38,229 nt of DNA from assembly GCA_035574075.1 (NCBI GenBank), contig DATLZI010000127.1:1-38229 (forward strand). Direction: 5' to 3'. The position numbers and the translations under genes were made by a program. Source of the DNA: a bacterium (GTDB lineage: Bacteria > Sysuimicrobiota > Sysuimicrobiia > Sysuimicrobiales > Kaftiobacteriaceae). The notes under the pieces were generated by a model. It was not told where the DNA came from. It worked only from the letters and a program-made list of their open reading frames with translations, and did not search any database. Of the stretch, positions 3,180-37,397 are shown piece after piece. Within the stretch, counting starts at the first letter, position 1; each line of letters starts with the position of its first letter.

Positions 3180-3181
3180 CG

Positions 3182-5058: not shown

Positions 5059-5071
5059 GCTCTATCCCCCC

Positions 5072-5372: not shown

Positions 5373-5378
5373 GTGGCC

Positions 5379-5635: not shown

Positions 5636-5733
5636 CCGCCGCCGGCCGCTCGGCTCGCCGGCGGGCGGAGAGCCTGGACAACCGAACAGCGGGTCAGCGC
5701 GCCCGCGGCCGGGCCGTCAGTCCCCACCCAACC

Positions 5734-7161: not shown

Positions 7162-7166
7162 CGCGC

Positions 7167-8408: not shown

Positions 8409-8422
8409 CGCCTCGGCCTCGA

Positions 8423-10661: not shown

Positions 10662-10668
10662 GACGCGG

Positions 10669-11040: not shown

Positions 11041-11089
11041 CCGCTACCGCGTCCCGACCATGTCGCGGCCGATCGACGCCGGCCCCCGC

Positions 11090-12709: not shown

Positions 12710-12721
12710 GGGGGGAGGGCA

Positions 12722-13846: not shown

Positions 13847-14733
13847 CAGGGCGGGGGTGGGCCGTCAACCGCGTGCCGCATGGCCGCAATGGGCGCGGGC
13901 CGGCCGGTCCACAGCTCGAAGCTCCGCGCCCCCTGGTAGACCAGCATGCTCAGGCCGTCCACGATCGTCGCCCCCGCGCGGGCCGCCGCGTTCAGCAACG
14001 CCGTCCGCCGCGGCGTGTACACCATGTCCAGGACGATCATGCCGGGACGCAGCACCGGATCGAGGGCCCGCAGCCAGGCCGGCGCCTCGCCGCGCCCGTC
14101 GGAGATCTCCGCGAGCATCGCGCTGGTCGCCTGGATGATCACGTCGGCCTCTTCCGCTGCTCGGACGACGGTCGCGGGATCAAGGGGCCCCGCCCGCACG
14201 GCGCAGGCCGGATGGGCATCGGCCACACGACCGGCCACCTCCTCCGCGCGCGACGTGGTCCGATTCAAGATCACCACCGACGCCGCGCCGGCGCTGGCGA
14301 GCGCGAACGCGGCGCTACGACCGGCGCCCCCGGCGCCCAGGACGAGGCAGCGGGCCCCGGCCAGGGTCCGACCGCCATCGCGCACCAGGGCGTCCAGCAC
14401 GCCCGGCGCGTCGGTGTTGTAGCCGACGAGCCGGTCGGCTTCGACGCGCACGGTGTTGACCGCGCCGATGGCGCGGGCCGATGGCTCGAGCTCGTCGAGG
14501 AGGCTCGTCACGGCCCGCTTGTGGGGGATGGTGACGTTGACGCCGGCCAGACCGAGCGCCCGGATGCCGCGCAGCGCATCCGGCAGGTGCTCCGCCGGGA
14601 CGTGAAAGGCGACGAACCGCCAGTCCATCCCCAGCGCCGCAAACGCCGCGGTGTGCATGCGGGGGGAAAGCGAGTGGGCCACGGGATCCCCGATGATCCC
14701 GACGATCCCTCCGTGCGCCCGCGGGGCGATCAT
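13846..14733 (-). CDS. aroE: shikimate dehydrogenase
   Basis: [37 protein letters not shown]. The stop shares one nt with the aroC ATG. Confidence 0.93.
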
Positions 14734-14740
14734 ACCCGGA

Positions 14741-14749
14741 ATGATAGCA
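14741..14749 (-). promoter_or_regulatory. possible extended -10 element (TGC-TATCAT) upstream of aroE
   Basis: Minus strand reads ATTATGCTATCATTCCGGGTATG, and the element closely resembles the aroF promoter (TATGCTATAAT). I saw no good -35. The -10 ends 7 nt before the aroE ATG. Confidence 0.3.
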
Positions 14750-14807
14750 TAATCTCCCTGCGATCCTGGGGAAGTCCGGAGGCGGGGGCGGCGCGGTGCG
14801 CGATCGC

Positions 14808-16433
14808 TCAGGACTGCGGCAGGCTATCCCCAGCGGTTTGCCCCGCCGCCGCTCCGTGGTCGCTGACCACACGGGCCACCAGGTCGAGCGGCACGTCGCT
14901 GTGCACCTCGCCACTGCCGAGGGCTGTGGGCAGCACGAACCGCAACCGGGCGCCCTGCTTCTTCTTGTCGCGCCACAAGGCCTCCACGAGGTGCGCCGCC
15001 GCCACCCCCGAGAAATCGCACGGCAGACCCAGCCGCCGCAAGAGGGCCGTCTGCCGATCCGCCAGCGTTCCAGCGGTGATCCCCATCGCCGAGCCCACCC
15101 GGGCGGCCAGGGTCATCCCGATGGCCACCGCCTCGCCGTGCGTGTAGCGACGGAAGCCCGTCGAAACCTCGATGGCATGCGCAAAGGTATGGCCGTAGTT
15201 GAGCAGCAGGCGGCGTCCCGTACCTTCCTCGTCTTCATCGACGATGGCGGCCTTGATCCGCAGGCACCACGCCACCAGGTCGGCAAGGCCCTCGCCGCGG
15301 AGCAGATCGCCCGCCCGTTCTTCCAGGAAGCGGAACAGCCCGGCGTCGGCGATCACCCCGTACTTCACGGCCTCGGCCAGTCCAGCGCGCAGCGCTCGAA
15401 GGCCGCCGGCCTGCGCCAGCTGGACGTCGGCGACAGCCAACCGCGGATGGTGGAGGAGGCCGATGAGATTCTTGGCGCGGGGATGGTTGAGCGAGACCTT
15501 TCCGCCGATGCAGCTGTCGAGCTGGGCGACCAGCGTCGTGGGCAGGTAGACTACCGGGACACCGCGCATATACGTCGCGGCGAGAAACCCGCCGATGTCC
15601 AGCGTCTCTTCTCCTCCCATGGCCACCAGACAGCCGGTCCGGTCGAGCTGCTCCTGGACCAGTCGGTCACAGAGCCAGCCGACGGACTCCCACGTCTTCG
15701 CGCTCTCCCCGGCCGGAATCTCGATCAGCACCGGGGAGAAGCCCGCGCCCTGCAGCGCGTCGCGGAGCTGGATGCCGTACGACCTGGCGGCGGCGGGAGA
15801 CGCCAGCACGGCGGCCCGCCCCTGGAGCCCGGCTTCCCGCGCGTAGTACCCCACCAGCCCCCGCACCCCATCGCCCACGATCGCCTGATAGGCCGGGGCA
15901 TGGCGGGGATGGACGGAGACGACCGCCGTGGGCTCTCGCTCGGCAAGGAAACGGACGATCCTCCGCACCACCGCGTCGACGTCCTCCTCCGCGACATCCA
16001 CCACGAGGTCGGCGGCGCGATATCCCGCCTCGCGCCGCTTCCACAGGCGCTCCAGGTTCTGAACGGCCCCGCCCTTGAGGAGCGGCCACTGGTCGGCCTG
16101 CCCGACCCGACGGGCCAGCACCTCGGGGGGCGCCACCAGGGCGATGACCCACCCCCAGGCCCGGAGGGTGGCCATGTTCTCGGGCCGCTCCACCACGCCG
16201 CCGCCGGTAGCGACAACGCCTCTCTGGCCGGTCACTTCGCTGATCGCCGCCTGCTCGAGGGCGCGGAAGTACGCCTCCCCGCGGGTCTCAAAGATCTCCG
16301 CGATGGACGCATCCTCGCGGCTCTCGATCATCTCGTCGGTATCGAAGAAGGGGAGGCCCAACGTGAACGCCAGGCGACGTCCCACAGCGCTCTTGCCCGT
16401 CGCGGGCATGCCGATCAGCGCGATGTTCCTCAT
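14808..16433 (-). CDS. aroKB: bifunctional shikimate kinase / divergent 3-dehydroquinate synthase-like fusion (copy 2)
   Basis: N-terminal domain has LIGMPATGKSAVG, FFDTDEMIE, YFRALE, ATGGGVV. C-terminal DHQS-like domain has GGEETLDIGGF, SCIGGKVSLNH, LNYGHTFAHAIE, HGEAVAIGM. ATG 16433 gives MRNIALIG...; the alternative is TTG 16469. Confidence 0.88.
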   Translation of the reverse strand: MRNIALIGMPATGKSAVGRRLAFTLGLPFFDTDEMIESREDASIAEIFETRGEAYFRALEQAAISEVTGQRGVVATGGGVVERPENMATLRAWGWVIALVAPPEVLARRVGQADQWPLLKGGAVQNLERLWKRREAGYRAADLVVDVAEEDVDAVVRRIVRFLAEREPTAVVSVHPRHAPAYQAIVGDGVRGLVGYYAREAGLQGRAAVLASPAAARSYGIQLRDALQGAGFSPVLIEIPAGESAKTWESVGWLCDRLVQEQLDRTGCLVAMGGEETLDIGGFLAATYMRGVPVVYLPTTLVAQLDSCIGGKVSLNHPRAKNLIGLLHHPRLAVADVQLAQAGGLRALRAGLAEAVKYGVIADAGLFRFLEERAGDLLRGEGLADLVAWCLRIKAAIVDEDEEGTGRRLLLNYGHTFAHAIEVSTGFRRYTHGEAVAIGMTLAARVGSAMGITAGTLADRQTALLRRLGLPCDFSGVAAAHLVEALWRDKKKQGARLRFVLPTALGSGEVHSDVPLDLVARVVSDHGAAAGQTAGDSLPQS

Positions 16434-16488
16434 GGAGGTTAGCCTAGGCCCTCCGCGGTAGCGGCGCAAGCATCACGGCCGGAGGGAG

Positions 16489-17310
16489 CTACGGCCGGGG
16501 GAGGAAGGGCCGAGGCGGAACCCCTGCGTAGGTGTAGCCGCAGCGCGGTGGCGTGGGCCCCTTGATGCGCTCCCCCTGCTGCATCTGCTCCCAGGCGTGC
16601 GCCAGGATCCCCACGGAGCGCGACAGGATGAACAGCCCCCGCCCCAGGGCCGGGGGGAAGTCGAGTTCGCAGAACACCACAGCGGTGGCCCCATCGATGT
16701 TCATGGGGATCCTCCGTCCGGCCCGCCGCTCCAGCGTAGCTTCCACGGCGCGCGCGATGCGCGCGAAGCGGCCGGAGACCGCCCCGGCGCCGACCGCCCG
16801 CTCGACCAGGTGGAGGAGCCGCACGGCCCGGGGATCGACGGGATGGAAGCGGTGGCCGAACCCGGGCACGTAGGCTCCAGGGCCAAGCCCGCTGAGGGCC
16901 GCCTCCACGGCCTCCTCCAGGGACATCCCCTGATCCCACCCCGCGGCCACGGCGTGCAAGACTTCCATGCACTGCTGGCCGGCGCCGCCGTGCACGTCCC
17001 CCAGCGCGTTCACCCCTGCGGCCACGGCGCCATTCAACGCCACCCCGCAGGTCGCCGTCATGCGCGCGATCGCGATGGACGGCGCCTGGGGCCCGTGATC
17101 CACGGCCGCGACCAGCGCGGCCTCGAGGAGCTGCGCCTGGGTCGTCGTGGGCAACTCTCCCCGCAGCATCAGCCAGACCATCGAGGGGAAGTTCAGGTTG
17201 CCGATGAGCTCTTCGATCGCGTAGCCCCGGATCCGGATGCTTCCCGGGGCGATATCGATGATGGCCGTCTGCCACCAATCCCGCACAGGGTCAGCCATCG
17301 GGTCGCTCAT
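16489..17310 (-). CDS. truncated citrate synthase family protein (citryl-CoA lyase-like)
   Basis: About 273 aa, from MSDPMADPVRDWW.... Citrate synthase family motifs are retained: GDVHGGAGQQ, VPGFGHRFHPVDPRA, PMNIDGATAV. ATGA overlap with the CoA-transferase stop. The upstream 96 codons of the tracked ORF are Arg-rich overlap. Confidence 0.85.
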   Translation of the reverse strand: MSDPMADPVRDWWQTAIIDIAPGSIRIRGYAIEELIGNLNFPSMVWLMLRGELPTTTQAQLLEAALVAAVDHGPQAPSIAIARMTATCGVALNGAVAAGVNALGDVHGGAGQQCMEVLHAVAAGWDQGMSLEEAVEAALSGLGPGAYVPGFGHRFHPVDPRAVRLLHLVERAVGAGAVSGRFARIARAVEATLERRAGRRIPMNIDGATAVVFCELDFPPALGRGLFILSRSVGILAHAWEQMQQGERIKGPTPPRCGYTYAGVPPRPFLPRP

Positions 17311-18509
17311 ATCGCCCCCCTGCGCCGGAGCGCCGCGATCTCTTCCGCCGTGAATCCCAGGCTCCGCAGCACATCGTCCGTGTGCTCCCCCAGGCGCGGC
17401 GGCGGCGCGGCGGCGGTCGGCCGGTGACCGGAGATCAAGACGCCGGTCGTGGTCACGTCGACATCGCGACCGATGCCCGCCACATCGCCAAAGTGCTGAA
17501 CCAGGCGGCGCGCGCTGACCTGCGGATGGGCGAGCACCTCGGGGACGGAAAGCACGCGGCCGGAGGGCACCCCGACTCTGTTCAGTCGCTCCTCCCATTC
17601 CGCCGCCGACCGCTGGGCCAGGCGGGCTTCGATCTCCGCCGTCAGGGCCTTCCGATGGCGCAGGCGGGCGTCCCGGTCAGCGAACCGCGGATCGGTGATG
17701 AGGTCCGGCCGCCCGATCTCACGACACAGCGCCTCGAACTGCTCCTGCTTGTTGGCGGCGATGTTCAGCACTCCGTCGCCGGTTCGAAACGTCCCCGAGG
17801 GACTGGCCGTGAAGTTCTCGTTGCCCGACCGGCGGGGGACTTCGCCGGCGATCAGGTAATTGGACACCACCCACCCCATGCTGACCAGCGTGGCCTCGAG
17901 CATCGACACGTCCAGCAGGCACCCCCGGCCCTCTTGCTGGCGCAGACGCAGCGCGCTGGCGATGGCGAAGGCCGCGGCCAGCCCGCCGATGGTATCGCAG
18001 ACCGGAAAGCCCACGCGCAGCGGCCCGCTCCGCTCGTCGCCGGTGACGTCCATCACCCCGGCCAGCCCCTGGATGATCTGATCGTAGGCCGGGTTGGGGC
18101 TGAGGGGGCCGTCCTGGCCGAACCCGGAGATCGCGCAGTAGATCAGACCGGGGTTGAGCGTGGAGAGGCGGTCGTATCCCAGGCCGAGCCTGGCCATGAC
18201 GCCGGGCCGGAAGTTCTCCACCAGCACGTCGGCGGTGACCACCAGCCGTTCGAACACCCTCTGTCCTTCCGGATCCTTGAGGTTGATGGTCACCGAGCGT
18301 TTCCCCGCGTTCTGCGCCAGGAACGAGGCCCCCATCAGGGCGCGGTTGAGGGCTGGGTCGGCGCCGAGTTGCCGGGCGAGATCCCCGCTGCCCGGGACTT
18401 CGACCTTGATGACATCGGCACCGAGCAGGGCCAGCTGAAAGGTGCAGAACGGCCCCGCCAGCACATTGGTGAGGTCAAGGACGCGGACGCCTTCAAGCGG
18501 TGCGGCCAC
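17307..18509 (-). CDS. family III CoA-transferase (CaiB/BaiF type)
   Basis: PLEGVRVLDLTNVLAGPF..., ADVLVENFRPGVMARLGLGY, LIYCAISGFGQDGP, AYDQIIQGLAGVM. GTG 18509 is preceded by AAGGA 9 nt upstream. The N-terminal 200 codons of ORF 17307..19154 overlap iclR in another frame and are rejected. Confidence 0.88.
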   Translation of the reverse strand: MAAPLEGVRVLDLTNVLAGPFCTFQLALLGADVIKVEVPGSGDLARQLGADPALNRALMGASFLAQNAGKRSVTINLKDPEGQRVFERLVVTADVLVENFRPGVMARLGLGYDRLSTLNPGLIYCAISGFGQDGPLSPNPAYDQIIQGLAGVMDVTGDERSGPLRVGFPVCDTIGGLAAAFAIASALRLRQQEGRGCLLDVSMLEATLVSMGWVVSNYLIAGEVPRRSGNENFTASPSGTFRTGDGVLNIAANKQEQFEALCREIGRPDLITDPRFADRDARLRHRKALTAEIEARLAQRSAAEWEERLNRVGVPSGRVLSVPEVLAHPQVSARRLVQHFGDVAGIGRDVDVTTTGVLISGHRPTAAAPPPRLGEHTDDVLRSLGFTAEEIAALRRRGAI

Positions 18510-19251
18510 GACGCTCGATCCTTTCGTCGAATGGCCGCCGGTCGCCGCCGAGATCGGCCGTGAGCTCCGCCGAGGCGACCAGGACCAGGGCCCTGATCCG
18601 CTCCGCGGTCCGGCTCCGGAACCGGTAGATCGGGCCGGAGACGGACAGCGCCCCGACCAGCTCCTGGCCGATCCGGAAGACCGGCGCCGCGACCGCGGCG
18701 GTTTCGCGGTCCCGCTCACCGAAGGTTGCCGCGACATACTGGCGGCGGATCCGCGCGTACACCTCCCCGGGCTCGCCGCTGAAGGCGAGCAACACCCGTC
18801 CGACGGCGCCCCGGTCCAGCGGCAGGTGGTCGCCCTCCCGCACGTGGTCGCGGATGGCTCGGGGGGAGTCCACGCGATGCAGGCAGACGCGCACGGTCCC
18901 CTCGCGCACGTAGAAGGACGCGCTCTCGCCGGTCTGCCGGACCAGTTTCCGCAACATCGGCACCACGAGGTCGCCCACCCGGAACGACCGCTGATACAGG
19001 CTGGCCAGACGCATCGGGGTCGGCCCCAGCCGGTACCCCGCGCCGTCGACGCGGTGCAGGTAGCCGTGGCGGGCCAGCGATTCGCACAGCCGCAGGATGG
19101 TGCTCTTGTACATGCCGGTGCGCTCGGCCATGTCGGCGAGGGTGAGCGTGGCATCCCCCTCGCGGAAGACCGTCAGCACCGTCAGCGCCCGGTCCACCGC
19201 CGCGACGCCCGCCTTTCGCCCTGTTCCGACCCAGCTTCTGCCCGCTACCAT
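18493..19251 (-). CDS. IclR-family transcriptional regulator
   Basis: VDRALTVLTVF...LTLADMAERTGMYKSTILRLCESLARHGYL (wHTH), then an IclR effector domain (LPLDRGAVGRVLLAF, VGALSVSGP). ATG 19251 overlaps the ThDP-enzyme stop. Confidence 0.9.
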   Translation of the reverse strand: MVAGRSWVGTGRKAGVAAVDRALTVLTVFREGDATLTLADMAERTGMYKSTILRLCESLARHGYLHRVDGAGYRLGPTPMRLASLYQRSFRVGDLVVPMLRKLVRQTGESASFYVREGTVRVCLHRVDSPRAIRDHVREGDHLPLDRGAVGRVLLAFSGEPGEVYARIRRQYVAATFGERDRETAAVAAPVFRIGQELVGALSVSGPIYRFRSRTAERIRALVLVASAELTADLGGDRRPFDERIERRGRTA

Positions 19252-20972
19252 TGGTAGATGTCGTTGATGTCCCAGTGCCCTCCCGTCGGTACGGGATCGT
19301 TGGTCATCGGCACATCCAGGACCGTCGGCCGCCGGCCCTGCAGCGCCCGCTCCAGCGCGGGGCCCAGATCCTCGGCGCGCTCGATGCGCACACCCTCCGC
19401 GCCGTAGGCTCGCGCCAGGGCGGCGAAATCGGGCGAGTACGGCCTGCCCTCGTGGCGGAACTCGCAGCCCAGGGTGTGGCCGAAGTGCTGGTTCATGAGG
19501 CCGGCGATCGTCCCGTGGGCGAAGTTGTTCATGACCACCCACGTGACGTTGATGCCCTGCTCCACCGCCGTGGCCAGCACGGAGGGGTTGGCGCTGAACG
19601 CCCCATCCCCGACCATCGCCACACAGGCGCGCTCGGGCTTCGCCAGCTTGGCGCCTAGCACGGCGGCCGGCCCGAACCCCATCGTAGCCAGCCCGCCCGG
19701 GGTCAGGTGCGTGCGTGGGAAGTAGATGGGAAACTGCTGCCCCACGCCGTTCTTGTTCCAACCGACGTCCGTCACCAGGATGCCGTCCCGGGGCAGGGCG
19801 GCGCGCACCTCGGCCAGGATGCGTTGGGGGGCGAGGGGGTACTTCTCCGACCGCATCGGGCCGGCAAGGCTCTCGCGCCACTTCGCCCGCTCGGCCTGGA
19901 TCTCCGCTAGATCGACATGCCCGCGGCCGCCGCGGGGCGCCAGCTCCATCATCGCCTCCAGGATCGCGCGCAGCGCCGCCCGGGCATCGGCGACGGCCCC
20001 GATCGCCACCGGGAAGGATCGGCCGAGCTCGGCCGGATCGACATCGATGTGGATCAGCTCGGTGGGCGGGATGGCGAAGGTGAATCTCGCGTCCCACGAA
20101 CTGGCATCGGCCTCGGCGAACCGCGTGCCCACGGCCAGGAGCACGTCGGCCTCCCGGGTCACGCGATTCGTCAGGTCCGTCCCCCAGAAGCCGGTCATCC
20201 CCAGGACCAGCGGGTGGTCGTCCGGGATCGCTCCCTTCCCCATCAGGGAGTAGGCGACGGGAGCGTTGAGGTGCTCGGCGAGCCGGGCCAGCTCTTCCGC
20301 GCCACCCGAACTGATGACGCCGCCGCCCACATAGAGCACGGGCCGTCGGGCCGCCAGCAGGCGTTCGGCGATGCGGTGTGCCGTTCCCGGTTCCAGTCCG
20401 GGCCGCGCCGCAGGGCGCGGAGCGGGGGGATCAGGATCCTCCGCCGGCCGGGACAGCACGTCCATGGCCACGTCCACGAGCACCGGCCCGGGACGGCCGC
20501 TCATGGCGAGCAGGTAGGCGCGTTCCAGGATCCGGGCCAGACCCCTGGGCTGCGTCACGCGCCAGACGCGCTTCACGAAGGGCCGGTAGATGGCGGACTG
20601 ATCGCCATCGTTGTGCACCTGAACCTCCTGGTGGGGGTGGCGGCCGAAGAAGTACGACGGAACATCGCCGGCGATGACGAGCAGCGGGACGGAATCCAGC
20701 GCCGCGTTGGCCACCCCCGTGACGGCATTGGTCAGCCCCGGCCCGACGTGGGTCAGCAGCACCCCGCACTCCCCGGAGGCGCGGGCGTACCCGTCGGCCA
20801 TGTGCGCGGCGATCTGCTCATGCCGGTTCATCACGAACTGGATCCGGCTGTCCCGGAAGGCGTCCAGCAGCGCGATCACGGTGTGCCCGCACAGGCCGAA
20901 GACGTACCGTGTCCCGATCGCCTCCAGGAACCGCGTGATCTGATGCGCAACGTTGTAGGGCTTGGCTCCCAT
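19245..20972 (-). CDS. thiamine diphosphate-dependent enzyme, acetolactate synthase-like (specific reaction unknown)
   Basis: Three-domain ThDP fold: N-terminal Pyr domain (HEQIAAHMADGYARASG, GPGLTN), middle domain, and a C-terminal PP domain with GDGAF...N (VGDGAFSANPSVLATAVEQGINVTWVVMNN). Confidence 0.88.
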   Translation of the reverse strand: MGAKPYNVAHQITRFLEAIGTRYVFGLCGHTVIALLDAFRDSRIQFVMNRHEQIAAHMADGYARASGECGVLLTHVGPGLTNAVTGVANAALDSVPLLVIAGDVPSYFFGRHPHQEVQVHNDGDQSAIYRPFVKRVWRVTQPRGLARILERAYLLAMSGRPGPVLVDVAMDVLSRPAEDPDPPAPRPAARPGLEPGTAHRIAERLLAARRPVLYVGGGVISSGGAEELARLAEHLNAPVAYSLMGKGAIPDDHPLVLGMTGFWGTDLTNRVTREADVLLAVGTRFAEADASSWDARFTFAIPPTELIHIDVDPAELGRSFPVAIGAVADARAALRAILEAMMELAPRGGRGHVDLAEIQAERAKWRESLAGPMRSEKYPLAPQRILAEVRAALPRDGILVTDVGWNKNGVGQQFPIYFPRTHLTPGGLATMGFGPAAVLGAKLAKPERACVAMVGDGAFSANPSVLATAVEQGINVTWVVMNNFAHGTIAGLMNQHFGHTLGCEFRHEGRPYSPDFAALARAYGAEGVRIERAEDLGPALERALQGRRPTVLDVPMTNDPVPTGGHWDINDIYQW

Positions 20973-20983
20973 CTCCCACCACC

Positions 20984-22012
20984 TTACTCCGCGATGCGCA
21001 CCACGGCTTTCCCCGCCAGCCGCCCCCCCGCGGCGTGCAGGGCGTCCTCCACGGCGGCGAGGGGGAATTCGGACTCCACCAGGTCGCCGATCCGCAGGAT
21101 CCCGCGACCGGTCACCAGACCGATGGCCCTGCGGAAGTCATCGGGGTGGTCGTAGATGATCGAGCTGGTGATGGTGATCCCTTCGCGCACGATGCGCAAC
21201 GGTTGCAGGGACACGGGATCGGTGGCCAGTCCCAGCAGGACCACGGTGCCTCCACGCGGCACCGCCTCCAGACACCAGCCCGCCCCGGAGGCTGTGCCGG
21301 AGGACTCGAAGATCACCGGCCAGGCAGCCCCGGTCTGGACGCGGCGCGCGAGCCCTGTCGCATCTTCGCGGGACATCACCACCGTCTCGGCGGCTCCGGC
21401 GCGTCGCGCGGCCTCGACCCGCCGCTCATCCAGATCGATGGCGCAGATGCGGACGCCCATGCCGGCCAGCAGGCGCGTCAGGACCAGGCCGATGGTGCCG
21501 CACCCCAGAACCAGGGCGGCATCCCCCGGCACCAGCTTGGAGACGGCGACGGCGTGGATGGCCACGGCCAGGGGCTCGATGAGCACTGCGTCCTGCCAGG
21601 ACAGAGCCGGCGGGATGGCCCAGGCGTGGGTGGCGGGAAGGGTCGCGTAGTCGGCCAGCACGCCGGGCACGTTCACGCCCAGGGAGCGCTTGTCGGGGCA
21701 GATCGCGCCGCGGCCGCGCCGGCACCAGAGGCATCGTCCGCAGGGCACGTTGGGCTCGAGGACGACGCGCTCGCCGACGCGCTCCGCGCCCACGCCAGGG
21801 CCCACCGCAGCGATCCGTCCCACCCCCTCGTGTCCCATGATGAGGGGATAGGGCGCCGTACGGTGCCCCTGGAAGAGGTGCACATCGCTGCCGCACACCC
21901 CCACGCGCTCGATGGCCACCAGCACCTCGCCGGCCTGGGGCACCGGTGGGGGAAGGCGGTCCACCCGCACCGTGCGCGGGGCATGGAGGCGCGCCGCCCG
22001 CATCAACATCAC
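20984..22012 (-). CDS. zinc-dependent medium-chain alcohol/polyol dehydrogenase
   Basis: GVCGSDVH, GHEGVG, structural zinc CGRCLWCRRGRGAIC, Rossmann motif VLGCGTIGL. ATGA overlap with the aroD stop. Confidence 0.9.
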   Translation of the reverse strand: MMLMRAARLHAPRTVRVDRLPPPVPQAGEVLVAIERVGVCGSDVHLFQGHRTAPYPLIMGHEGVGRIAAVGPGVGAERVGERVVLEPNVPCGRCLWCRRGRGAICPDKRSLGVNVPGVLADYATLPATHAWAIPPALSWQDAVLIEPLAVAIHAVAVSKLVPGDAALVLGCGTIGLVLTRLLAGMGVRICAIDLDERRVEAARRAGAAETVVMSREDATGLARRVQTGAAWPVIFESSGTASGAGWCLEAVPRGGTVVLLGLATDPVSLQPLRIVREGITITSSIIYDHPDDFRRAIGLVTGRGILRIGDLVESEFPLAAVEDALHAAGGRLAGKAVVRIAE

Positions 22013-22839
22013 GGCCCCTCCTCGCCGGGACCGCCGGCCAGACCCAGCGCCCGCAACCCCCGGCGCATCAGCTCCAGGTCCATCTGACCGGGGGCCGAGG
22101 CTTCCAGGCCCACCGCGAACGTCAGGTCGGATCCGAAGTGCCCCGCGAAGCGGCTCACCCCGCCCAGCGCTCCCATGGACATCAGGATGCAGGGGATCTC
22201 CAGGAACGTGCGGCGCGCCTCCAGGCCGGCGGTGAGCAGGGCAAGCACGTCCTCCGGCATCCGCGGCGTGACCGCGACCTTCGCCACGGCCGCACCGGCG
22301 CTCTGCATCGTCCGGAGCGTCCCCAGCAGCGTCTGCACGGCGGGGGTCGCGGTGAAGTCATGCCACGACCGAATCACCGCCACGCCCGCTCGCCCCGCCG
22401 CTTCGGTCACGCGCGCGGCCAGGGGTGGGGGGGTGGCCAGTTCCACATCGACCAGCGCCGGGGTACCGGTCGCTGCCGCCGCGGTGAGGATGGCCACCCG
22501 GCGATCCTCCTCCTGGATCCTGTGCCCGCCCTCGCCGGCCAGGCGGTTCGTGAAGATCAGCGGGATCGGCGCGGCGGCGGCCACGTCCTGGAGCAGCGCC
22601 GGGACGTCAGCGGGGGTCAGGTCGGCGACGAAGTCGGCACGCCACTCGATGCAGTCAGGCCGGAGCGCGGCCAGCGCGCGGGCCTGGTCGACCAGCGCGC
22701 CGCGATCGCGCGCCGTCAGGGGCACGCAGGTGAGCACCGTCGGCCCGCCCAGCAGGTGTCGGCCGACCTTGACCGGTCGTCTGGCAGAGAGACGGGACGG
22801 CGTGATGCTCCTACCTCCATCACCGGGTCGGGTTCTCAC
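22009..22839 (-). CDS. aroD: 3-dehydroquinate dehydratase, type I
   Basis: IEWRADF, SWHDF..TP, AKVAV (Schiff-base Lys region), MSMGALGGVSR. The only upstream start codon in frame is GTG 22839, which overlaps the cupin 3' end by 20 nt, so the start is uncertain. Confidence 0.88.
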   Translation of the reverse strand: MRTRPGDGGRSITPSRLSARRPVKVGRHLLGGPTVLTCVPLTARDRGALVDQARALAALRPDCIEWRADFVADLTPADVPALLQDVAAAAPIPLIFTNRLAGEGGHRIQEEDRRVAILTAAAATGTPALVDVELATPPPLAARVTEAAGRAGVAVIRSWHDFTATPAVQTLLGTLRTMQSAGAAVAKVAVTPRMPEDVLALLTAGLEARRTFLEIPCILMSMGALGGVSRFAGHFGSDLTFAVGLEASAPGQMDLELMRRGLRALGLAGGPGEEGP

Positions 22840-23215
22840 CCGGCGGCGTGTAGCACCACAGCAGCACGAGCGGCTCGGAGCCGGTATTGACGTGCTGGTG
22901 CGGCAGTCCCTTGGGCACGAACATCATGTCGTGGGGGCCGAAGGGCTGCCGCGAGCCATCGGCGCCGACCACTTCCCCGTGGCCGGCCAGGACCACATTG
23001 ATCTCTTCCGACTCGGGATGGCTGTGCAGCGAGCTCGCCTCTCCCTGGGGGAAGACGGTGATCCCCGCCACCAGGTGCTCCGAGCCGCACAGCTCTCTGT
23101 CCACCGTGCGGAACACCTTGCGGCGGAATCCCGGATTGTCCAGTCCGATCCAGTAGGCCTTCCCCTCCGTGTACGTCCGGACCACTCGGATCCCGGGCTG
23201 CGCCCTGACGCCCAC
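22820..23215 (-). CDS. monocupin metalloprotein
   Basis: Both cupin motifs are present: GEASSLHSHPESEEINVVLAG and GPHDMMFVPKGLPHQHVN (His/His/Glu/His ligands). 131 aa with a GTG start. Confidence 0.85.
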   Translation of the reverse strand: MGVRAQPGIRVVRTYTEGKAYWIGLDNPGFRRKVFRTVDRELCGSEHLVAGITVFPQGEASSLHSHPESEEINVVLAGHGEVVGADGSRQPFGPHDMMFVPKGLPHQHVNTGSEPLVLLWCYTPPGENPTR

Positions 23216-23218
23216 GTC

Positions 23219-24715
23219 TCACCCCTCCTCGGACAGTCCCACGAAGACGCTCTTCACTTCGCTGTACTCGAGCAGTCCCTCCAGGCCCAGTTCCCGACCC
23301 AGGCCGCTTTGCTTGAAGCCGCCGAAGGGCGCCTCGATGTAGGTCACGGGCACGCTGTTCACGCTGACCACCCCGGCACGCAGGGCGCGCGCCAGACGGT
23401 GCGCCCGCCCCACGTCGCGGGTCCACACGGTCGCCGCCAGGCCGTAGCGCGTCTCGTTCGCGATCCTGACCGCTTCCGCTTCTTCCGCAAACCGCATGAT
23501 GCACACCACCGGCCCGAAGATCTCCTCGCGGGCGATGGTCATCTCGTTGCGCACTTCGCCGAACGCCGTGGGGAGCAGGTAGTATCCCTCCGCCAGCGCG
23601 GGGTCGTCCGGCACCCGGCCGCCGCAGAGCAGCGCGGCGCCTTCCTCCAGGCCCTTCCGCACGTACCCCAGGATGGACGCGCGCTGCGCCTGTGAGATCA
23701 CCGGGCCCATCTCCGTCGCCGGATCCAGCGGATCTCCGAGCTTGATCGCCCGGGCGGCGGCGACGAATCGCTCGACGAACTCCTCATAGATCGCGTCGTG
23801 CACCAGCAGTCGGGAACGGGCTGTGCACCGCTGGCCGGCGTGGGAGTACACGGCGGTGATCGACCCGGGAACCGCCCGCTTAAGATCGGCATCGGGGAAG
23901 ATCACGTTGGGCGACTTGCCGCCGAGTTCCAGCGTCAGGCGCTTGACCGTGGCCGCGGCGGCGGCCATCACAGCGGTGCCGGTCTCGGTGTCGCCGGTGA
24001 GAGCGATCTTGTCCACCCCGGGGTGCCTGACCAGCGCCATCCCGAGCGTTCCCCCGGGCCCCGTGACAACGTTGACCACCCCCGGCGGTAGACCGGCTTC
24101 CAGGCAGATCTCACCCAGCAGGAGAGCGGTCACCGGCGTGGCGCTGGCCGGCTTGAGGATCACCGTGTTCCCGACAGCCAGGGCTGGGGCCGTCTTGTAG
24201 GCGGCCATGATGAAGGGACTGTTCCAGGGCGTGATCCCCAGGCACACCCCGATCGGCTCGCGCACTGTGTAGGCGAAGAGGCCCTCATCCACGGGCAGGG
24301 TTCGCCCCCAGAGCTTCTCGGCCAGTCCCGCGTAGTAGTGGAAGCACGCCGCGGCTTTAAGGATCTGGGCCCGGGCGTCGCGGATCGGCTTGCCCGAGTT
24401 CATGGTCTCCAGGCGCGCCAGTTCGTCCGCCCGCGCTTCGATCCGATCGGCCACGGCGCGAAGCAGCCGCGCCCGGGCGGCCCCGCTCATCCTCGGCCAG
24501 GGACCGGTCTCCAGGGCCTGCCGGGCCGCCGCCACCACGCGCTCCGCGTCGGCCGGACCGGCGCTGGCCACGCGGGCGACCACCCGGCCCGTAGCCGGGT
24601 TGTAGGTGTCCATCGTGGCTCCGGACTCAGCCGGAGTCCACCGGCCGCCCACCAGCAGGGCATACGTCGGCACGTCCTTCATCGCTGCGGATGTGGCACG
24701 CGGCACCGTTGCCAT
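23219..24715 (-). CDS. NAD(P)-dependent aldehyde dehydrogenase
   Basis: From MATVPRATSAAMKDVP...: ITPWNSPF, KPA, LELGGKSP, catalytic GQRCTA, EEIFGPV. ATG 24715 shares one nt with the tctA stop. The N-terminal 200 codons of the tracked ORF overlap tctA and are rejected. Confidence 0.92.
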   Translation of the reverse strand: MATVPRATSAAMKDVPTYALLVGGRWTPAESGATMDTYNPATGRVVARVASAGPADAERVVAAARQALETGPWPRMSGAARARLLRAVADRIEARADELARLETMNSGKPIRDARAQILKAAACFHYYAGLAEKLWGRTLPVDEGLFAYTVREPIGVCLGITPWNSPFIMAAYKTAPALAVGNTVILKPASATPVTALLLGEICLEAGLPPGVVNVVTGPGGTLGMALVRHPGVDKIALTGDTETGTAVMAAAAATVKRLTLELGGKSPNVIFPDADLKRAVPGSITAVYSHAGQRCTARSRLLVHDAIYEEFVERFVAAARAIKLGDPLDPATEMGPVISQAQRASILGYVRKGLEEGAALLCGGRVPDDPALAEGYYLLPTAFGEVRNEMTIAREEIFGPVVCIMRFAEEAEAVRIANETRYGLAATVWTRDVGRAHRLARALRAGVVSVNSVPVTYIEAPFGGFKQSGLGRELGLEGLLEYSEVKSVFVGLSEEG

Positions 24716-26295
24716 CACGCCACCTCCCTTCTGATCCGTCGGCGGCGCACCAGGTTCACGATCCCGCCGATGGAGAGACTCGGCGCGAAGGCCGAGAGCA
24801 AGATGACGGTCAGCACCAGGCTGATGGGATGACTGACCAGCTCCCAGAAGAACAGCGGCACGTTGCCCTGGACGGCGAGCATGGCCCGGCGGAAGTTGAT
24901 GTCGGCCAGCGGTCCGAGGATCACCCCCAGCACCATCGGCCCCACCGGATAGCCGCCCAGCTTCATGAAGTACCCCAGCACGCCGAACCCGATCATCCAG
25001 AAGACGTCGTAGATGTTGTTCTGGATGGCGTAGGTCCCGACGACCGAGATGAGCACGATGAGCGGCATCAGGATCTTCTTGTTGATGTTCACGACCTTGA
25101 CGAACGGGCGCACCGCCATCAGCCCGAAGAAGAAGAGGAAGATGTTCGCCAGGCCGTAGGAGCCGGCGATGAACCAGAACAGATCTCGCTGCTCCACCAT
25201 GAGCAACGGCCCGGGCCGCAGCCCGTGGATGAACAGCACGCTGATCAGCACCGCGGTCACGGCGTCGCCCGGAATGCCCAAGGTGAGCATGGGGATCATG
25301 TCCCCGCCGATGCACGCGTTGTTGGCCGTCTCCGGGGCGACCACCCCTTCCACCGCGCCCTGGCCGAAGGGACGCGATGGTTTCTTCACCGTCCGCTTGG
25401 CGTCCGCGTAGGCGAGCAGCGCGGCGATGTCGCCTCCCGCCCCGGGCAGCGCTCCCACGATGACCCCGATCACCGAGGCGCGGATGGTCACGGGCAGGTA
25501 CTTGAAGAAGTATCGGAACCCCGGGAGAACGCCGCCCACCTCGGCGATCCGGGCCTGCGGAACCCCACTCCGCACGATCCTCCCGATCTGATAGATCACC
25601 TCGGAAGCCCCGAAGAGCCCGATCACGGCGGCGATGAAGTGCACGCCGTTGATCAACACCGGCTGGCCGAAGGTGAACCTCCCCTCGCCGGTGATCGGGT
25701 CCATGCCGATCAACCCGACCAGGACGCCCACCGCCGCGCCGACCATCGACTTCGCCATCGATCCCCCCGCGAGGCGGCCGGTCAGCGAGAGGCCCATCGC
25801 CGCCAGCAGGAAGTAGTCTCTGGGCGCGAACTTCAGGGCGAGCTCGGAGATCGGCGGCGCGGCGAGGATCAGCGCCAGAAGGCCGATGAACCCACCCACC
25901 ACGGATTGGACGGTGGCCACCCCGATCGCCAGGCCGGCTTCCCCCCGCATCGCCATAGGGTGGCCGTCGAACGTCGTCGCCAGCGCGGAAGGGGTGCCTG
26001 GGATGTTGATGAGGATCGACGATCGCGACCCTCCGTACACCCCGCCGGCGTACACGCCGAGCATCAACGCCAGCGCCGTCTTCGTGTCCCAGGAATAGGT
26101 CATCGAGGCCAGCAGGGCCACAGCCATCGTCACGCTGAGGCCCGGAGTGGCGCCCACCAGGATGCCCGCGGCCACGCCGAGCGCGGACAGCGCAACGTTG
26201 AGCGGGGAGAGGAATTCGCCGAGCACGCGCAGGGCCAGGTCGATGGTCGGCCTCCTAGGGCAGGATGACGACGAACAGGTACCGGAACACGGCAA
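24715..26295 (-). CDS. tctA: tripartite tricarboxylate transporter, large permease
   Basis: TctA-type polytopic protein (GATPGLSVTMAVALL, INIPGTPSA, GALPGAGGDIAA). The start is uncertain: TTG 26295 lies inside tctB, while AGGAGG lies 6 nt before an in-frame ATC at 26244. Confidence 0.88.
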   Translation of the reverse strand: MPCSGTCSSSSCPRRPTIDLALRVLGEFLSPLNVALSALGVAAGILVGATPGLSVTMAVALLASMTYSWDTKTALALMLGVYAGGVYGGSRSSILINIPGTPSALATTFDGHPMAMRGEAGLAIGVATVQSVVGGFIGLLALILAAPPISELALKFAPRDYFLLAAMGLSLTGRLAGGSMAKSMVGAAVGVLVGLIGMDPITGEGRFTFGQPVLINGVHFIAAVIGLFGASEVIYQIGRIVRSGVPQARIAEVGGVLPGFRYFFKYLPVTIRASVIGVIVGALPGAGGDIAALLAYADAKRTVKKPSRPFGQGAVEGVVAPETANNACIGGDMIPMLTLGIPGDAVTAVLISVLFIHGLRPGPLLMVEQRDLFWFIAGSYGLANIFLFFFGLMAVRPFVKVVNINKKILMPLIVLISVVGTYAIQNNIYDVFWMIGFGVLGYFMKLGGYPVGPMVLGVILGPLADINFRRAMLAVQGNVPLFFWELVSHPISLVLTVILLSAFAPSLSIGGIVNLVRRRRIRREVA

Positions 26296-26704
26296 ATGTC
26301 ACCCCGGTCGCCACGGCCGCCACCAGCAGGGACTTCCACCAGGGCATCGCCCGCAGCCACAGGAACGACACCAGCAGGAAGACCAGGGAGGACCGGACGA
26401 ACCCCAACGGCCTGAGCAGGGCTCCGTAGCCGATGATCAGGGCGGCGTACAGCAGCGCCCACCCCGTCACCGGCTCAGCCGGTTCATCCGCAGATCGCTC
26501 CTGTCGCCAGATGGATACAGCGCAGGCCAGAAGGACGGCGGCGACCAGCGCCGGGAAAACGCCGGGCGAGCCGGGATCAGACCAGAAATCCGTGAACCGG
26601 CTCGCCCGCACGAACACAAACACACCCAGGGCCGCGATCCCCGCCGCCTGTGCGCGGGCCGACCACTTCGCCCGCGGCGCCGCCGGGGAGGGGTCCGCCG
26701 CCAT
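26255..26704 (-). CDS. tctB: tripartite tricarboxylate transporter, small permease
   Basis: 149 aa, four predicted TM helices, positioned between tctC and tctA. The ATG is 1 nt after the tctC stop. Confidence 0.8.
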   Translation of the reverse strand: MAADPSPAAPRAKWSARAQAAGIAALGVFVFVRASRFTDFWSDPGSPGVFPALVAAVLLACAVSIWRQERSADEPAEPVTGWALLYAALIIGYGALLRPLGFVRSSLVFLLVSFLWLRAMPWWKSLLVAAVATGVTFAVFRYLFVVILP

Positions 26705-26705
26705 C

Positions 26706-27742
26706 CTACTTCCCGGGCCGCGGAATCCCGAACGCCTGGGGCGACTTCTTCGCCGCGCCGGCGTCGTAGAGCAGCCAGGCGGTCACGGACTGCCACTGCT
26801 TCACGAACCGCACGGCCTCGTCCCCGGAGAGGTTCAAGGGAACCGCGCCCAACAGCTCGGCGAATTCCTTGAACTCCTCGCTGCCGACCGCCGCTTTGAA
26901 GGCCTCGGTGAGCTTGGCCACGGCCGGAGCGGGGGTGCCCTTCTTGACCCAGACCCCGAAGAACGGTCCCCAGGGGAGGTAGGGGCGTAGCGGGGGATCA
27001 TCTGCCCCAGGGCCGGCACGCCGGGCGCGCCGGCGTTCGGCACGTTGTCTACGACCGCGATCGCCCGCATGCGGCCAGCCCGCATATGCTCCGCCGCTGC
27101 CGAGAGGACCGAGACATGGAAGTCGATATGCCCCCCCAGCAAGGCGGCCAGAGCCGGCCCATCGCCGTCGAAGGGAATCGTGTTGAACTTCACGCCGCTT
27201 ACCGCGGTCATCATGGCGCCGACGACAAAGGGCACGCCCCCGATGCCCGTGCCGCCGGCCTTGATCTGGCCGGGGCGCTGCCGGGCGTCACGGATCAGGT
27301 CGTCGAGGTACCGATACTTCGAGTCGCTGCGCACGACGATTACCGGGATGCTGCGAGCGAACAGGTTGATCGGGATGAACTCGTCGAAGGTGCGCGGCGA
27401 GATGTCCAGGATGCCGTACAGCGTCGGGTTCTCGGCGGCGAACAGCAGGGTGTAGCCGTCCGCCGGCTGGTCGTAGACGTACTGCATGGCCGTGGCCCCG
27501 CTGGCCCCCGTCATGTTGTTCAAAACGATCCGCTGCCCCAACAGGCGATCCGCCAGCGGAGCCACCTTCCGCGACACGCGATCCGTGGTGCCGCCGGCGC
27601 CCCACTGGATGATGCCGATGATGTTGCGCTCGGGATACCCCTGCGCCGTCGACGGGGCGGCGGCGACCCCCAGCGCCAACATCACCCCCAGCAGGGCCAT
27701 CACGGACAGTCGCCGCGCACCGGACATCCTGGATCTACCCAT
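26706..27742 (-). pseudogene. tctC: TctC/Bug-family periplasmic substrate-binding protein, reading frame broken by a 1-nt frameshift
   Basis: The 5' part (frame of ORF 26834..27778) gives a signal peptide plus the Bug fold up to ...GVPALGQMIPRYAP. The conserved C-terminus YLPWGPFFGVWVKKGTPAPAVAKLTEAFKAAVGSEEF... continues in the frame of ORF 26706..26921. The switch is at the GGGG run 26982..26985, and the out-of-frame tail is Pro/Ser/Arg-rich. Confidence 0.7.
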
Positions 27743-27956
27743 GCCCTCTCCCCCCTCACGGTGATGCGCAGCCCCCACCCTCCACCCCCGATCGGGAGCC
27801 GCTACTGCGTACTGCCTGGTAGAACTTCGTTCTGAAATTACGCTCCTCCTCTCGCCCGGCAGGGGGAACGGTCCGCCCCGGCCGGCAGAGGAGGTCCCCC
27901 GCGCATCCTCTAATGGTGGCAGCGTCCACCCCGGGCCAGGGGGTGGAGGACCGCGC

Positions 27957-32170: not shown

Positions 32171-32175
32171 GCGCG

Positions 32176-32820: not shown

Positions 32821-32849
32821 CGTCCTGACAGACGTTCCCCGCCGGCCGC

Positions 32850-35297
<2,448 letters not shown>

Positions 35298-35306
35298 GGG
35301 CGGCTC

Positions 35307-37397
<2,091 letters not shown>

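Follow-up and report, generated by a model that had tools for sequence, protein, structure and literature searches.

Few alicyclic acids of plant origin are as abundant in soil, litter, guts and fermentations as quinate and shikimate, which occur free or are released from chlorogenic acids. To our knowledge, the only established bacterial route for these acids runs via protocatechuate (QuiA/QsuD, QuiB/QsuC and QuiC/QsuB, followed by the O2-dependent beta-ketoadipate pathway) and needs O2 for ring fission. Brune and Schink reportedly found in the early 1990s that fermenting isolates degrade quinate and shikimate without aromatic intermediates, and we know of no work that identified the enzymes of those isolates. 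Ring opening without O2 is described for the myo-inositol catabolism of Bacillus subtilis (IolG, IolE, IolD, IolB, IolC, IolJ and IolA, with IolI as accessory isomerase), in which a polyhydroxylated cyclohexane is converted to a ketone, a TIM-barrel (xylose-isomerase-like) or cupin protein carries out a rearrangement, a thiamine diphosphate (ThDP) enzyme opens the ring, a C-C lyase then cuts the chain and an aldehyde dehydrogenase (ALDH)-family enzyme is involved. Besides IolD, only one other ThDP enzyme known to open a cyclohexane ring by hydrolysis is well studied, namely CDH, the cyclohexane-1,2-dione hydrolase of strain 22Lin, whose omega-oxo acid product is then oxidised. Here we analyse a stretch of bacterial DNA of 38,229 nucleotides (contig DATLZI010000127.1; the whole stretch is called the window below), with a G+C content of about 72% and its nearest relatives among Armatimonadota metagenome-assembled genomes (MAGs). 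It carries 12 close-packed minus-strand genes at 14808-27742: tctC, tctB and tctA for a tripartite tricarboxylate (TTT) importer, genes for an ALDH, a cupin, the dehydroquinase AroD, a Zn-dependent alcohol dehydrogenase (Zn-ADH), a ThDP enzyme, an IclR regulator, a CoA-transferase (CoAT) and a short citrate-synthase-like acyl-CoA lyase (CCL), and aroKB2.

Our analysis suggests, with a probability of roughly 0.6, that the 11 genes from tctC to CCL form a module for the catabolism of quinate and shikimate that bypasses protocatechuate and is free of O2; the gene roles are drawn from comparative genomics, and the chemistry is one that we infer. An O2-independent hydroaromatic route was also the central idea of the original prediction, made from the sequence of the window alone, and comparative genomics supports it. 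The module appears to represent a real, widespread and apparently undescribed catabolic pathway made of known enzyme families.

Conservation of the cluster and its interchangeable enzymes

The gene order tctCBA-ALDH-cupin-aroD-ADH-ThDP-IclR-CoAT-CCL was identical in five related contigs (L002, L003/L004, L087, L088 and L089), with 76-93% identity of the ThDP enzyme. The proposal that the genes are a functional unit is borne out by this order being kept outside the genome of the window; its absence elsewhere had been named first among the outcomes that would speak against the original prediction. In L087 and L088, 1.4-3 kb of unrelated genes (hypothetical, PemK toxin, alkaline phosphatase) lie between CCL and the aroKB2-type gene, so the conserved unit ends at CCL. 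The conserved module is therefore composed of 11 genes (tctC to CCL, 16489-27742) and aroKB2 is a neighbour outside the core; the 12-gene unit claimed earlier stands for these 11 genes and falls for aroKB2. Tight gene spacing by itself is ordinary for operons, and the non-chance element is the conservation in relatives.

A scan of species-representative genomes gave at least 586 matched stretches with ThDP orthologues; 80 loci were kept with 10-kb flanks, and the set used for co-occurrence comprised 82 non-redundant loci around ThDP orthologues. Orthologues with 55-60% identity were found in about ten phyla, strict anaerobes included, and the 82 loci came from Pseudomonadota, Bacillota, Acidobacteriota, Gemmatimonadota, Planctomycetota, Chloroflexota, Synergistota, and deltaproteobacterial and other MAGs. 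Searches with the window proteins (tblastn) revealed that genes for CCL, CoAT, ALDH, IclR, AroD-like, cupin, Zn-ADH, TctC/TctA and AroE-like proteins recur around the ThDP gene in varying order. Clustering of the open reading frames (ORFs) of the loci de novo, followed by annotation of the recurrent families, added an IolI-like AP_endonuc_2 TIM barrel, tripartite ATP-independent periplasmic (TRAP) transporters, a type II dehydroquinase, a pyrroloquinoline quinone (PQQ) dehydrogenase of the glucose/quinate/shikimate family, a protein resembling 3-hydroxy-3-methylglutaryl-CoA (HMG-CoA) lyase, a CoA-acylating ALDH, shikimate kinase, QuiC-like proteins and LacI regulators. A distant orthologue, P0039, with the gene set PQQ dehydrogenase/ThDP/RraA-like, had first suggested a lack of conservation, and this was reversed by the 80-locus scan.

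The hydroaromatic theme of the original prediction was supported by these loci. At least one hydroaromatic marker, that is a dehydroquinase, a shikimate/quinate-type dehydrogenase, a shikimate kinase or a QuiC-like gene, was present in 64 of the 82 loci: type I dehydroquinase in 23, type II in 19, AroE-like in 21, PQQ dehydrogenase in 19, shikimate kinase in 14 and QuiC-like in 18. The commonest gene directly upstream of the ThDP gene was CCL (33 loci), and the commonest directly downstream were the TIM barrel (17) or the cupin (10). Thermoanaerobacterium, Synergistia, Anaerolineae and a bacterium from an upflow anaerobic sludge blanket (UASB) reactor all carry the cluster, and its occurrence in strict anaerobes makes the oxygen independence claimed earlier plausible. 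Cultured carriers include Bacillus safensis FO-36b, B. xiamenensis HYC-10, Brevibacillus panacihumi W25, Anoxybacteroides tepidamans, Aromatoleum diolicum 22Lin, A. tolulyticum, Steroidobacter agaridevorans and Thermoanaerobacterium sp. DL9XJH110.

Comparison of the recurrent families revealed pairs that replace one another almost exclusively, as judged by Fisher tests that treat the loci as independent of phylogeny. As lyase, CCL (51 loci) and the HMG-CoA-lyase-like protein (17) never occurred together (p = 1.6e-9). For the conversion of aldehyde to thioester, 22 loci had ALDH with CoAT and 44 had the acylating ALDH without CoAT, with both in a single locus (p = 5e-11); CoAT co-occurred with the non-acylating ALDH (22 loci, p = 1.7e-11) and was found in only 1 of the 45 loci with an acylating ALDH. 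Type I (23) and type II (19) dehydroquinases were never found together (p = 7e-4), nor were the TIM barrel (36) and the cupin (13), the candidates for a ketol rearrangement (p = 2e-4). As first dehydrogenase, Zn-ADH (20) excluded the PQQ enzyme (19; none with both, p = 2e-3) and shared one locus with the AroE-like protein (21; p = 1e-2); all three dehydrogenase types were close to mutually exclusive. Transporters alternated loosely, TTT in 12 loci and TRAP in 29, and TRAP or major facilitator superfamily (MFS) carriers stand in for TTT elsewhere. The nearest solved relative of the TIM barrel is IolI, and the HMG-CoA-lyase-like alternative lies above the cut-off of the HMG-CoA lyase subfamily model. 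Each of these slots is filled by exactly one gene in the window, and this accounts for all 11 genes of the module.

The ThDP enzyme is the predicted ring-opening enzyme and signature gene of the pathway. It belongs to the three-domain superfamily that resembles POX and acetohydroxyacid synthase (AHAS): Glu52, which activates the cofactor, and G455-D456-G457...N483 (GDG...NN) are invariant across 12 orthologues. Among NCBIfam models it stays below every cut-off; the top match was AHAS TIGR00118 (424.7 against 538.35), and other AHAS equivalogs were far below (e.g. 403.8 against 976). The best PDB matches were BbmA (290 bits), E. coli AHAS I (271), Gcl (glyoxylate carboligase, 240) and CDH (2pgn, 172.9), so that CDH, ranking below BbmA, AHAS and Gcl, is not the nearest solved relative. 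BbmA and CsmA are unmentioned in the ThDP-enzyme review PMC12247030. Neither an ilvN/ilvH small subunit nor ilvC was found in the window or among the recurrent gene families of 86 loci around ThDP orthologues. That the enzyme is not an AHAS, as held earlier, agrees with its scores below all AHAS cut-offs, the lack of a small subunit nearby and a context that is always catabolic. IolD was absent from the best 25 NCBIfam families of the enzyme (all at least 299 bits and themselves below cut-off), and no iol genes were found in the window. By these sequence comparisons the ThDP enzyme is a separate, widely conserved clade, distinct from AHAS, IolD and CDH.

The proposed pathway and competing readings

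In the proposed pathway the acid would be imported by TctCBA, and Zn-ADH would oxidise quinate to 3-dehydroquinate (DHQ) or shikimate to 3-dehydroshikimate (DHS). AroD would interconvert DHS and DHQ, such that both substrates reach DHQ with the tertiary C1 hydroxyl retained. The cupin, or elsewhere the IolI-like TIM barrel, would then carry out a ketol isomerisation or beta-elimination (dehydration) on the 3-keto-4,5-diol, and the ThDP enzyme would cut C3-C4, the net change being from DHQ to its isomer 2-hydroxy-2-(2-oxoethyl)glutarate (homocitrate semialdehyde). ALDH with CoAT, or elsewhere a single CoA-acylating ALDH, would take the aldehyde to homocitrate and a homocitryl-CoA-like thioester, which the citrate-synthase-like lyase would cleave to acetyl-CoA and 2-oxoglutarate. 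IclR would control the operon, probably through the palindrome AGAAC-N3-GTTCT. The net reaction would be quinate + 2 NAD+ + CoA -> 2-oxoglutarate + acetyl-CoA + 2 NADH, in which every conserved gene is used, no others are needed and no step requires O2.

This order of steps is read in part from the interchangeable enzymes. Aldehyde, acyl-CoA and lyase should follow one another in that order because the acylating ALDH can replace ALDH with CoAT. The superfamilies of both lyase types are known for Claisen or retro-Claisen reactions in which acetyl-CoA is paired with a 2-oxo acid or ketone, and the thioester should for this reason be a 3-hydroxy-3-substituted acyl-CoA, which needs the tertiary hydroxyl of DHQ. 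The structure of DHQ fits: C1 bears a hydroxyl and a carboxyl group, C2 is a CH2, and the carbonyl at C3 would turn first into the aldehyde and then into the thioester. The interchange of the mechanistically unrelated type I and type II dehydroquinases indicates the ordinary DHQ/DHS reaction, with shikimate entering via DHS. The predicted products are already central metabolites, which fits the finding of no further conserved enzyme after the lyase. Two other arrangements were rejected. A role of the ThDP enzyme as 2-oxo-acid decarboxylase after the lyase does not agree with the replacement of ALDH and CoAT by a CoA-acylating ALDH, which is sensible only if the aldehyde precedes the thioester. 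Citrate as the ALDH product fails on stoichiometry: one carbon would have to be lost and three oxidations made, and a single conserved oxidoreductase acts after ring opening.

Zn-ADH, predicted to be the quinate/shikimate dehydrogenase of the first step, and ALDH, predicted to oxidise the aldehyde from ring opening, had no NCBIfam equivalog above cut-off. AroD scored 158.2 bits against a cut-off of 139.3 for TIGR01093 and is about 40% identical to Geobacillus AroD (2yr1), with which its motifs AKVAV (Schiff-base Lys) and WHDF (His) align, and by sequence it is a bona fide type I dehydroquinase. No close solved homologue was found for the cupin, which is predicted to act as an isomerase or dehydratase that readies DHQ for ring opening; an oxygen-dependent dioxygenase function was considered unlikely, because strict anaerobes have the cupin in their clusters and because the TIM barrel that alternates with it is not an oxygenase. 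In L002 (6284-7690), L087 (6298-7707), L088 (6295-7707) and L089 the ALDH slot is taken by a CoA-acylating ALDH of the SauS/EutE type, 67% identical to the copies of Betaproteobacteria and Synergistia, and the CoA-transferase is kept. CoAT, 60-66% identical to the cluster copies in Betaproteobacteria, is predicted to activate the tricarboxylic acid formed by ALDH. CCL reached 424.4 bits against a cut-off of 261 for NF004864 ('citryl-CoA lyase') and 152 bits to the Hydrogenobacter citryl-CoA lyase 6hxp; its catalytic residues His72, His153 and Asp206 are invariant, as expected of a citryl-CoA lyase by sequence. No citryl-CoA synthetase resembling succinyl-CoA synthetase was found in the window, where the partner of CCL is a family III CoA-transferase in a hydroaromatic context, and CCL is predicted to cleave a 3-hydroxy-3-carboxyacyl-CoA to acetyl-CoA and a 2-oxo acid. 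The window lacks the gene content of the classical route, a 3-dehydroshikimate dehydratase with a protocatechuate dioxygenase: no QuiC-like or AP_endonuc_2 genes were found in it (tblastn with seeds), and no dioxygenase is among its annotated ORFs.

The enzyme-by-enzyme mapping of the operon onto the iol pathway, which formed part of the original prediction, does not hold as a whole. AroD had been equated with IolE; given the mutual substitution of type I and type II dehydroquinases, it is best taken for an ordinary DHQ/DHS interconverter, and the IolE/IolI-like slot falls to the cupin, which alternates with the IolI-like TIM barrel. The AroK domain had been equated with IolC; aroKB2 lies outside the conserved module in L087 and L088, and no kinase is needed to balance the pathway. 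For the ThDP enzyme and IolD the proposed role agrees and the family does not.

Several observations weigh against the quinate/shikimate reading. The substrate, the ring-opening reaction and the products are deduced from gene content and stoichiometry, the co-occurrence statistics carry no phylogenetic correction, and the cupin is without a characterised close relative. By sequence, the ThDP enzyme is nearer to the carboligases AHAS, BbmA and Gcl than to the two known ring-cleaving ThDP hydrolases. In the sequence at hand, tctC carries a frameshift. When metagenome contigs were scanned reciprocally by CCL alignment, 17 loci had 5 kb or more on each side; the ThDP gene accompanied CCL in 7 of them, and the others were IclR-CoAT-CCL modules, often with a distant TTT system. 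As these modules occur without the ThDP gene, the lower module also serves in other settings, and homocitrate need not be its substrate. L090 and L094 carry acylating ALDH, CCL and the TIM barrel with no ThDP gene nearby. No description of the pathway was found in full-text literature searches, which agrees with the earlier statement that no pathway of this composition is known; most subscription journals were outside their coverage, so an earlier description is possible.

Stand-alone IclR-CoAT-CCL modules were found in L107, L109, L111, L120, L125, L134, L147, L156, L162 and L164, 58-66% identical to the window proteins, and the ThDP gene was missing from the surrounding 10 kb; apparently the lower half of the pathway also exists as an independent module for some hydroxy-tricarboxylate. 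In L090 and L094 (about 8285-12072 in L094), two MFS carriers lie upstream and genes of uronate catabolism adjoin (UxaC, UxuA, mannitol-dehydrogenase-family, GntR). A carboxylesterase-family gene adjoins the ThDP gene in L075 (11827-13500) and three other loci, including Steroidobacter L059, and might, speculatively, encode a chlorogenate-type esterase that releases quinate.

The most serious question is whether the same conserved module performs other chemistry: the ring might be opened at DHS, the 5-hydroxyl might be kept to give 4-hydroxy-2-oxoglutarate and acetyl-CoA, or another carbocyclic or branched hydroxy acid might be handled by dehydroquinase and AroE paralogues of shifted specificity. 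We regard this as unlikely, though deserving of real weight, as the chemistry proposed above is itself deduced, there are CoAT-CCL modules that lack the ThDP gene, and the closest match of the TIM-barrel alternative is an inosose isomerase and not a dehydratase. Against it, the type I and type II dehydroquinases replace one another although they differ in mechanism and have only the DHQ/DHS reaction in common; a route from DHS to a 3-hydroxyacyl-CoA would need a hydratase, and none is conserved; and a hydroxy-retaining route would be left without a conserved second oxidoreductase, as Zn-ADH excludes the other first-step dehydrogenases. An RraA-like gene (HMG/CHA aldolase family) adjoins the ThDP gene in one acidobacterial locus and was at one point taken as a sign of a 4-hydroxy-2-oxoglutarate product; this was dropped, as the gene was found in one organism only.

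Far less probable is a chance juxtaposition, within an aromatic operon, of a citrate-utilisation set (TctCBA, CoAT, citryl-CoA lyase, IclR) with a spare AHAS-like enzyme, a generic ADH, ALDH and cupin and a biosynthetic aroD. Such a set would explain why CCL exceeds the 'citryl-CoA lyase' cut-off, why IclR-CoAT-CCL with TTT stands alone in many metagenome contigs and why aroD is the sole dehydroquinase of the aromatic operon of the window, and TTT systems were reportedly first described for citrate. Against chance, ThDP and CCL genes are direct neighbours in 33 of the 82 loci across many phyla; the genes around ThDP repeatedly include ALDH, CoAT, cupin, AroD-like and ADH in varied orders, and analogues replace them near-exclusively; TRAP or MFS carriers take the place of TTT elsewhere; and the ThDP enzyme falls below all AHAS cut-offs with neither ilvN nor ilvC nearby. 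Import of a tricarboxylate, offered as an alternative in the original prediction, is likewise unlikely as the primary function. A biosynthetic direction, or a specialised metabolite made from a shikimate-pathway intermediate, is the least credible of all; an example would be ThDP-dependent intramolecular carboligation of a homocitrate-derived aldehyde as another source of dehydroquinate. The module does lie inside an aromatic biosynthesis operon in Armatimonadota, the nearest characterised relatives of the ThDP enzyme are carboligases, and atypical AroB-like genes are nearby in five loci. In most taxa, however, the cluster contains importers that depend on solute-binding proteins (TTT or TRAP), PQQ dehydrogenases of the periplasm or membrane and regulators of catabolic type (IclR, LacI) accompany the genes, the step of the non-acylating ALDH is, by established enzymology, practically irreversible, and the window already has a DAHP synthase and a canonical AroB.

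Catabolism of quinate and shikimate is thus the reading that we prefer. In its fullest form it is put forward tentatively, at slightly less than even odds: an undescribed, widespread and O2-independent quinate/shikimate pathway in which a new ThDP clade would open DHQ to homocitrate semialdehyde, a reversed cleavage of the homocitrate-synthase type would follow, and in Armatimonadota the whole would be wired into the aromatic amino acid operon for salvage as well as catabolism.

Layout of the window and the adjoining aromatic operon

Coordinates of the features of the window. The 12 genes claimed by the original prediction are all present, and Pfam and NCBIfam agree with its family assignments.
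Feature	Coordinates	Strand	Assignment and evidence
MFS_2	27957-29252	+	GPH-type transporter, divergent from tctC
palindrome AGAAC-N3-GTTCT	27821-27833	n/a	about 80 nt upstream of the tctC ATG; candidate IclR operator
tctC	26706-27742	-	solute-binding protein of TTT importer; frameshifted here
tctB	26255-26704	-	small membrane subunit of TTT importer; Pfam TctB 66.8 bits
tctA	24715-26295 (start uncertain, 26226-26295)	-	large membrane subunit of TTT importer; Pfam TctA 472 bits
ALDH	23219-24715	-	NAD(P)-dependent aldehyde dehydrogenase; Pfam Aldedh 596 bits
cupin	22820-23215	-	131-aa metal-binding monocupin; Pfam Cupin_2
aroD	22009-22839	-	type I 3-dehydroquinate dehydratase; TIGR01093
Zn-ADH	20984-22012	-	Zn-dependent medium-chain dehydrogenase; Pfam ADH_N + ADH_zinc_N
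ThDP enzyme	19245-20972	-	three TPP_enzyme domains (TPP_enzyme_N, M, C; Pfam)
IclR	18493-19251	-	transcriptional regulator; Pfam HTH_IclR + IclR_C
CoAT	17307-18509	-	family III CoA-transferase; Pfam CoA_transf_3 407 bits
CCL	16489-17310	-	short citrate-synthase-like acyl-CoA lyase; NCBIfam NF004864
aroKB2	14808-16433	-	shikimate kinase/DHQ-synthase-like fusion; Pfam SKI + DHQ_synthase
aroE	13846-14733	-	downstream shikimate-pathway gene; Pfam/NCBIfam
aroC	12722-13846	-	downstream shikimate-pathway gene; TGATG overlap with aroE
aroKB1	11090-12709	-	canonical SKI-DHQS fusion
chorismate mutase	10669-11040	-	AroH-type; Pfam/NCBIfam
aroA	9360-10661	-	Pfam/NCBIfam
MoxR	8423-9367	-	interrupts aromatic operon
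DUF58	7167-8408	-	interrupts aromatic operon
DUF4129 protein	5734-7218	-	interrupts aromatic operon

Direct reading of the junctions agreed with the list given earlier, except that aroD and Zn-ADH are joined by GTGATG (a GTGA or TGATG overlap) and not by ATGA. The start of aroD is uncertain, the protein having 276 aa here and 242-265 aa as called in relatives. The tctB/tctA junction, missing from that list, is ambiguous: a TTG start at 26295 would make tctA overlap tctB, and the GTG that follows in frame is at 26226. The start of tctB lies 1 nt past the tctC stop codon, ALDH and tctA share a TGATG overlap, and a 55-nt gap separates CCL from aroKB2. A sigma-70 promoter scan of 9000-28500 gave no match, and terminator-like matches were at background level.

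The importer has the make-up of a TTT system, as TctC, TctB and TctA are encoded together and all have Pfam matches; tctA is 75-95% identical in L002-L004. In tctC, the Pfam TctC match is limited to positions 1-193 of the 274 in the profile, and the C-terminal part is in another frame owing to a 1-nt deletion between 26988 and 26987 relative to L003/L002 (GCTA-CGCC against GTACCGC), outside any long homopolymer. The gene is intact in relatives (332-346 aa in L003 and L002). The deletion cuts the solute-binding protein short, and the other genes of the operon are undamaged; a recent inactivation and an assembly error are both possible explanations. The divergent MFS_2 gene is in the same position in L003 and L004, and an MFS_1 gene is nearby in L002.

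The best NCBIfam matches of the IclR regulator were BhcR and PcaR/PcaU, both below cut-off, and its orthologues (50-54% identity) adjoin betaproteobacterial ALDH-CoAT-CCL-ThDP operons. The palindrome AGAAC-N3-GTTCT matches once in the window, against 0 matches expected from shuffled sequence. In L003/L004 it is kept upstream of tctC, and in L002 both half-sites are altered yet palindromic (AGAATGGCATTCT). Several distant loci with an IclR gene, from Aromatoleum, Phycisphaerales, UASB270 and deltaproteobacterial sources, carry the same pattern upstream of pathway genes. It is a candidate operator of the IclR of the operon, which would be expected to bind it.

Analysis of the flanks revealed a context missed by the original prediction. 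The minus strand runs on past aroKB2 through aroE, aroC, aroKB1, the AroH-type chorismate mutase and aroA, and, beyond the MoxR, DUF58 and DUF4129 genes, to a DAHP (3-deoxy-D-arabino-heptulosonate 7-phosphate) synthase gene, tyrA (prephenate dehydrogenase), trpE and trpD; the aromatic genes span 59-14733. Upstream lie gyrB, gyrA and an AlaX-like gene (30597-37268, minus strand). The module is thus joined to the head of the aromatic amino acid biosynthesis operon in this Armatimonadota lineage, so that AroD, the sole dehydroquinase in the window, probably also serves biosynthesis, and imported shikimate is probably salvageable via AroK.

The window has two SKI-DHQS fusions, aroKB2 and aroKB1, which are 43% identical. 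The DHQS-like domain of aroKB2 scores below the TIGR01357 cut-off for AroB (295.6 against 305); in it GGEETLD replaces the NAD-binding GGGV(I/V)GD and DSCIGGKV replaces DSSIGGKT, both changes being conserved in the orthologues (L002, L003, L087 and L088), and aroKB1 is canonical. In two distant loci, L036 and L085, the AroB-like genes beside the cluster are atypical as well (GG(T/A)VISE), with a canonical copy adjoining the atypical one in L036. Stand-alone shikimate kinase genes lie near 14 of the 82 clusters, mostly beside LacI. Our reading of the shikimate kinase is a salvage branch that leads imported shikimate to biosynthesis, not an IolC-like catabolic step. Between aroKB2 and aroE lies a 74-nt gap (14734-14807) with the only AT-rich stretch of the region (GATTATGCTATCATTCC), which may be an internal promoter for the biosynthetic genes; it was unflagged by the sigma-70 consensus scan.

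Significance and comparison with known systems

If the proposed pathway is true, it would supply the missing non-aromatic route of fermenting and other anaerobic bacteria that use hydroaromatic acids, and it would give a function to many genes annotated as 'acetolactate synthase' or 'citryl-CoA lyase'. It would be the third case of ThDP-dependent carbocycle opening, after IolD and CDH, and a short, redox-efficient route from quinate to 2-oxoglutarate and acetyl-CoA for metabolic engineering. The signature gene and the modular cluster would make the O2-free route directly testable in cultured Bacillus, Brevibacillus, Aromatoleum and Thermoanaerobacterium.

Comparison with the classical protocatechuate route revealed the first two steps to be common to both, with an NAD- or PQQ-type dehydrogenase, a type I or type II dehydroquinase and an IclR-type regulator. 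Unlike the classical route, the module contains ThDP, ALDH, CoAT and CCL genes and also occurs in strict anaerobes, and the window is without a 3-dehydroshikimate dehydratase or a ring-cleaving dioxygenase. Some Betaproteobacteria have QuiC-like genes in the same locus and may run both routes. In Aromatoleum diolicum 22Lin (L032, 5750-7537), and also in L068, a split QuiC-like 3-dehydroshikimate dehydratase (Glyoxalase_5 resembling 4-hydroxyphenylpyruvate dioxygenase, HPPD, with AP_endonuc_2) lies inside an ALDH-CoAT-CCL-ThDP operon, which suggests that the classical and proposed routes share one locus there.

The proposed route resembles myo-inositol catabolism in the conversion of a polyhydroxylated cyclohexane to a ketone, the rearrangement by a TIM barrel or cupin, the O2-free ring opening by a ThDP enzyme, the later cut of the chain by a C-C lyase and the involvement of an ALDH-family enzyme. 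It differs in that the ThDP enzyme lies outside the IolD family and scores highest against AHAS models, in that no kinase or aldolase step is needed, in that a citrate-synthase-like or HMG-CoA-lyase-like enzyme would cut the chain in the form of a CoA thioester, and in that the substrate would be a carboxylated carbocycle taken up by carboxylate importers. CDH is likewise distinct by its low score, and strain 22Lin has a separate orthologue of the window enzyme (57% identity) in the L032 operon IclR/ALDH/QuiC-like/CoAT/CCL/ThDP/AroE-like/AroD-like.

The lower half of the pathway finds its closest parallels in two lyases. CCL shares with the citryl-CoA lyase of Hydrogenobacter thermophilus, a member of the citrate synthase superfamily, the His-His-Asp triad and passes the model for that enzyme; unlike in Hydrogenobacter, the thioester would be made by a family III CoA-transferase or an acylating ALDH, with no citryl-CoA synthetase. 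The alternative lyase resembles HMG-CoA lyase, which with homocitrate synthase belongs to the DRE-TIM superfamily, and Claisen-type chemistry is common to both lyase types. The predicted CCL substrate, homocitryl-CoA, is one carbon longer than citryl-CoA, and the predicted step is the homocitrate synthase reaction in reverse.

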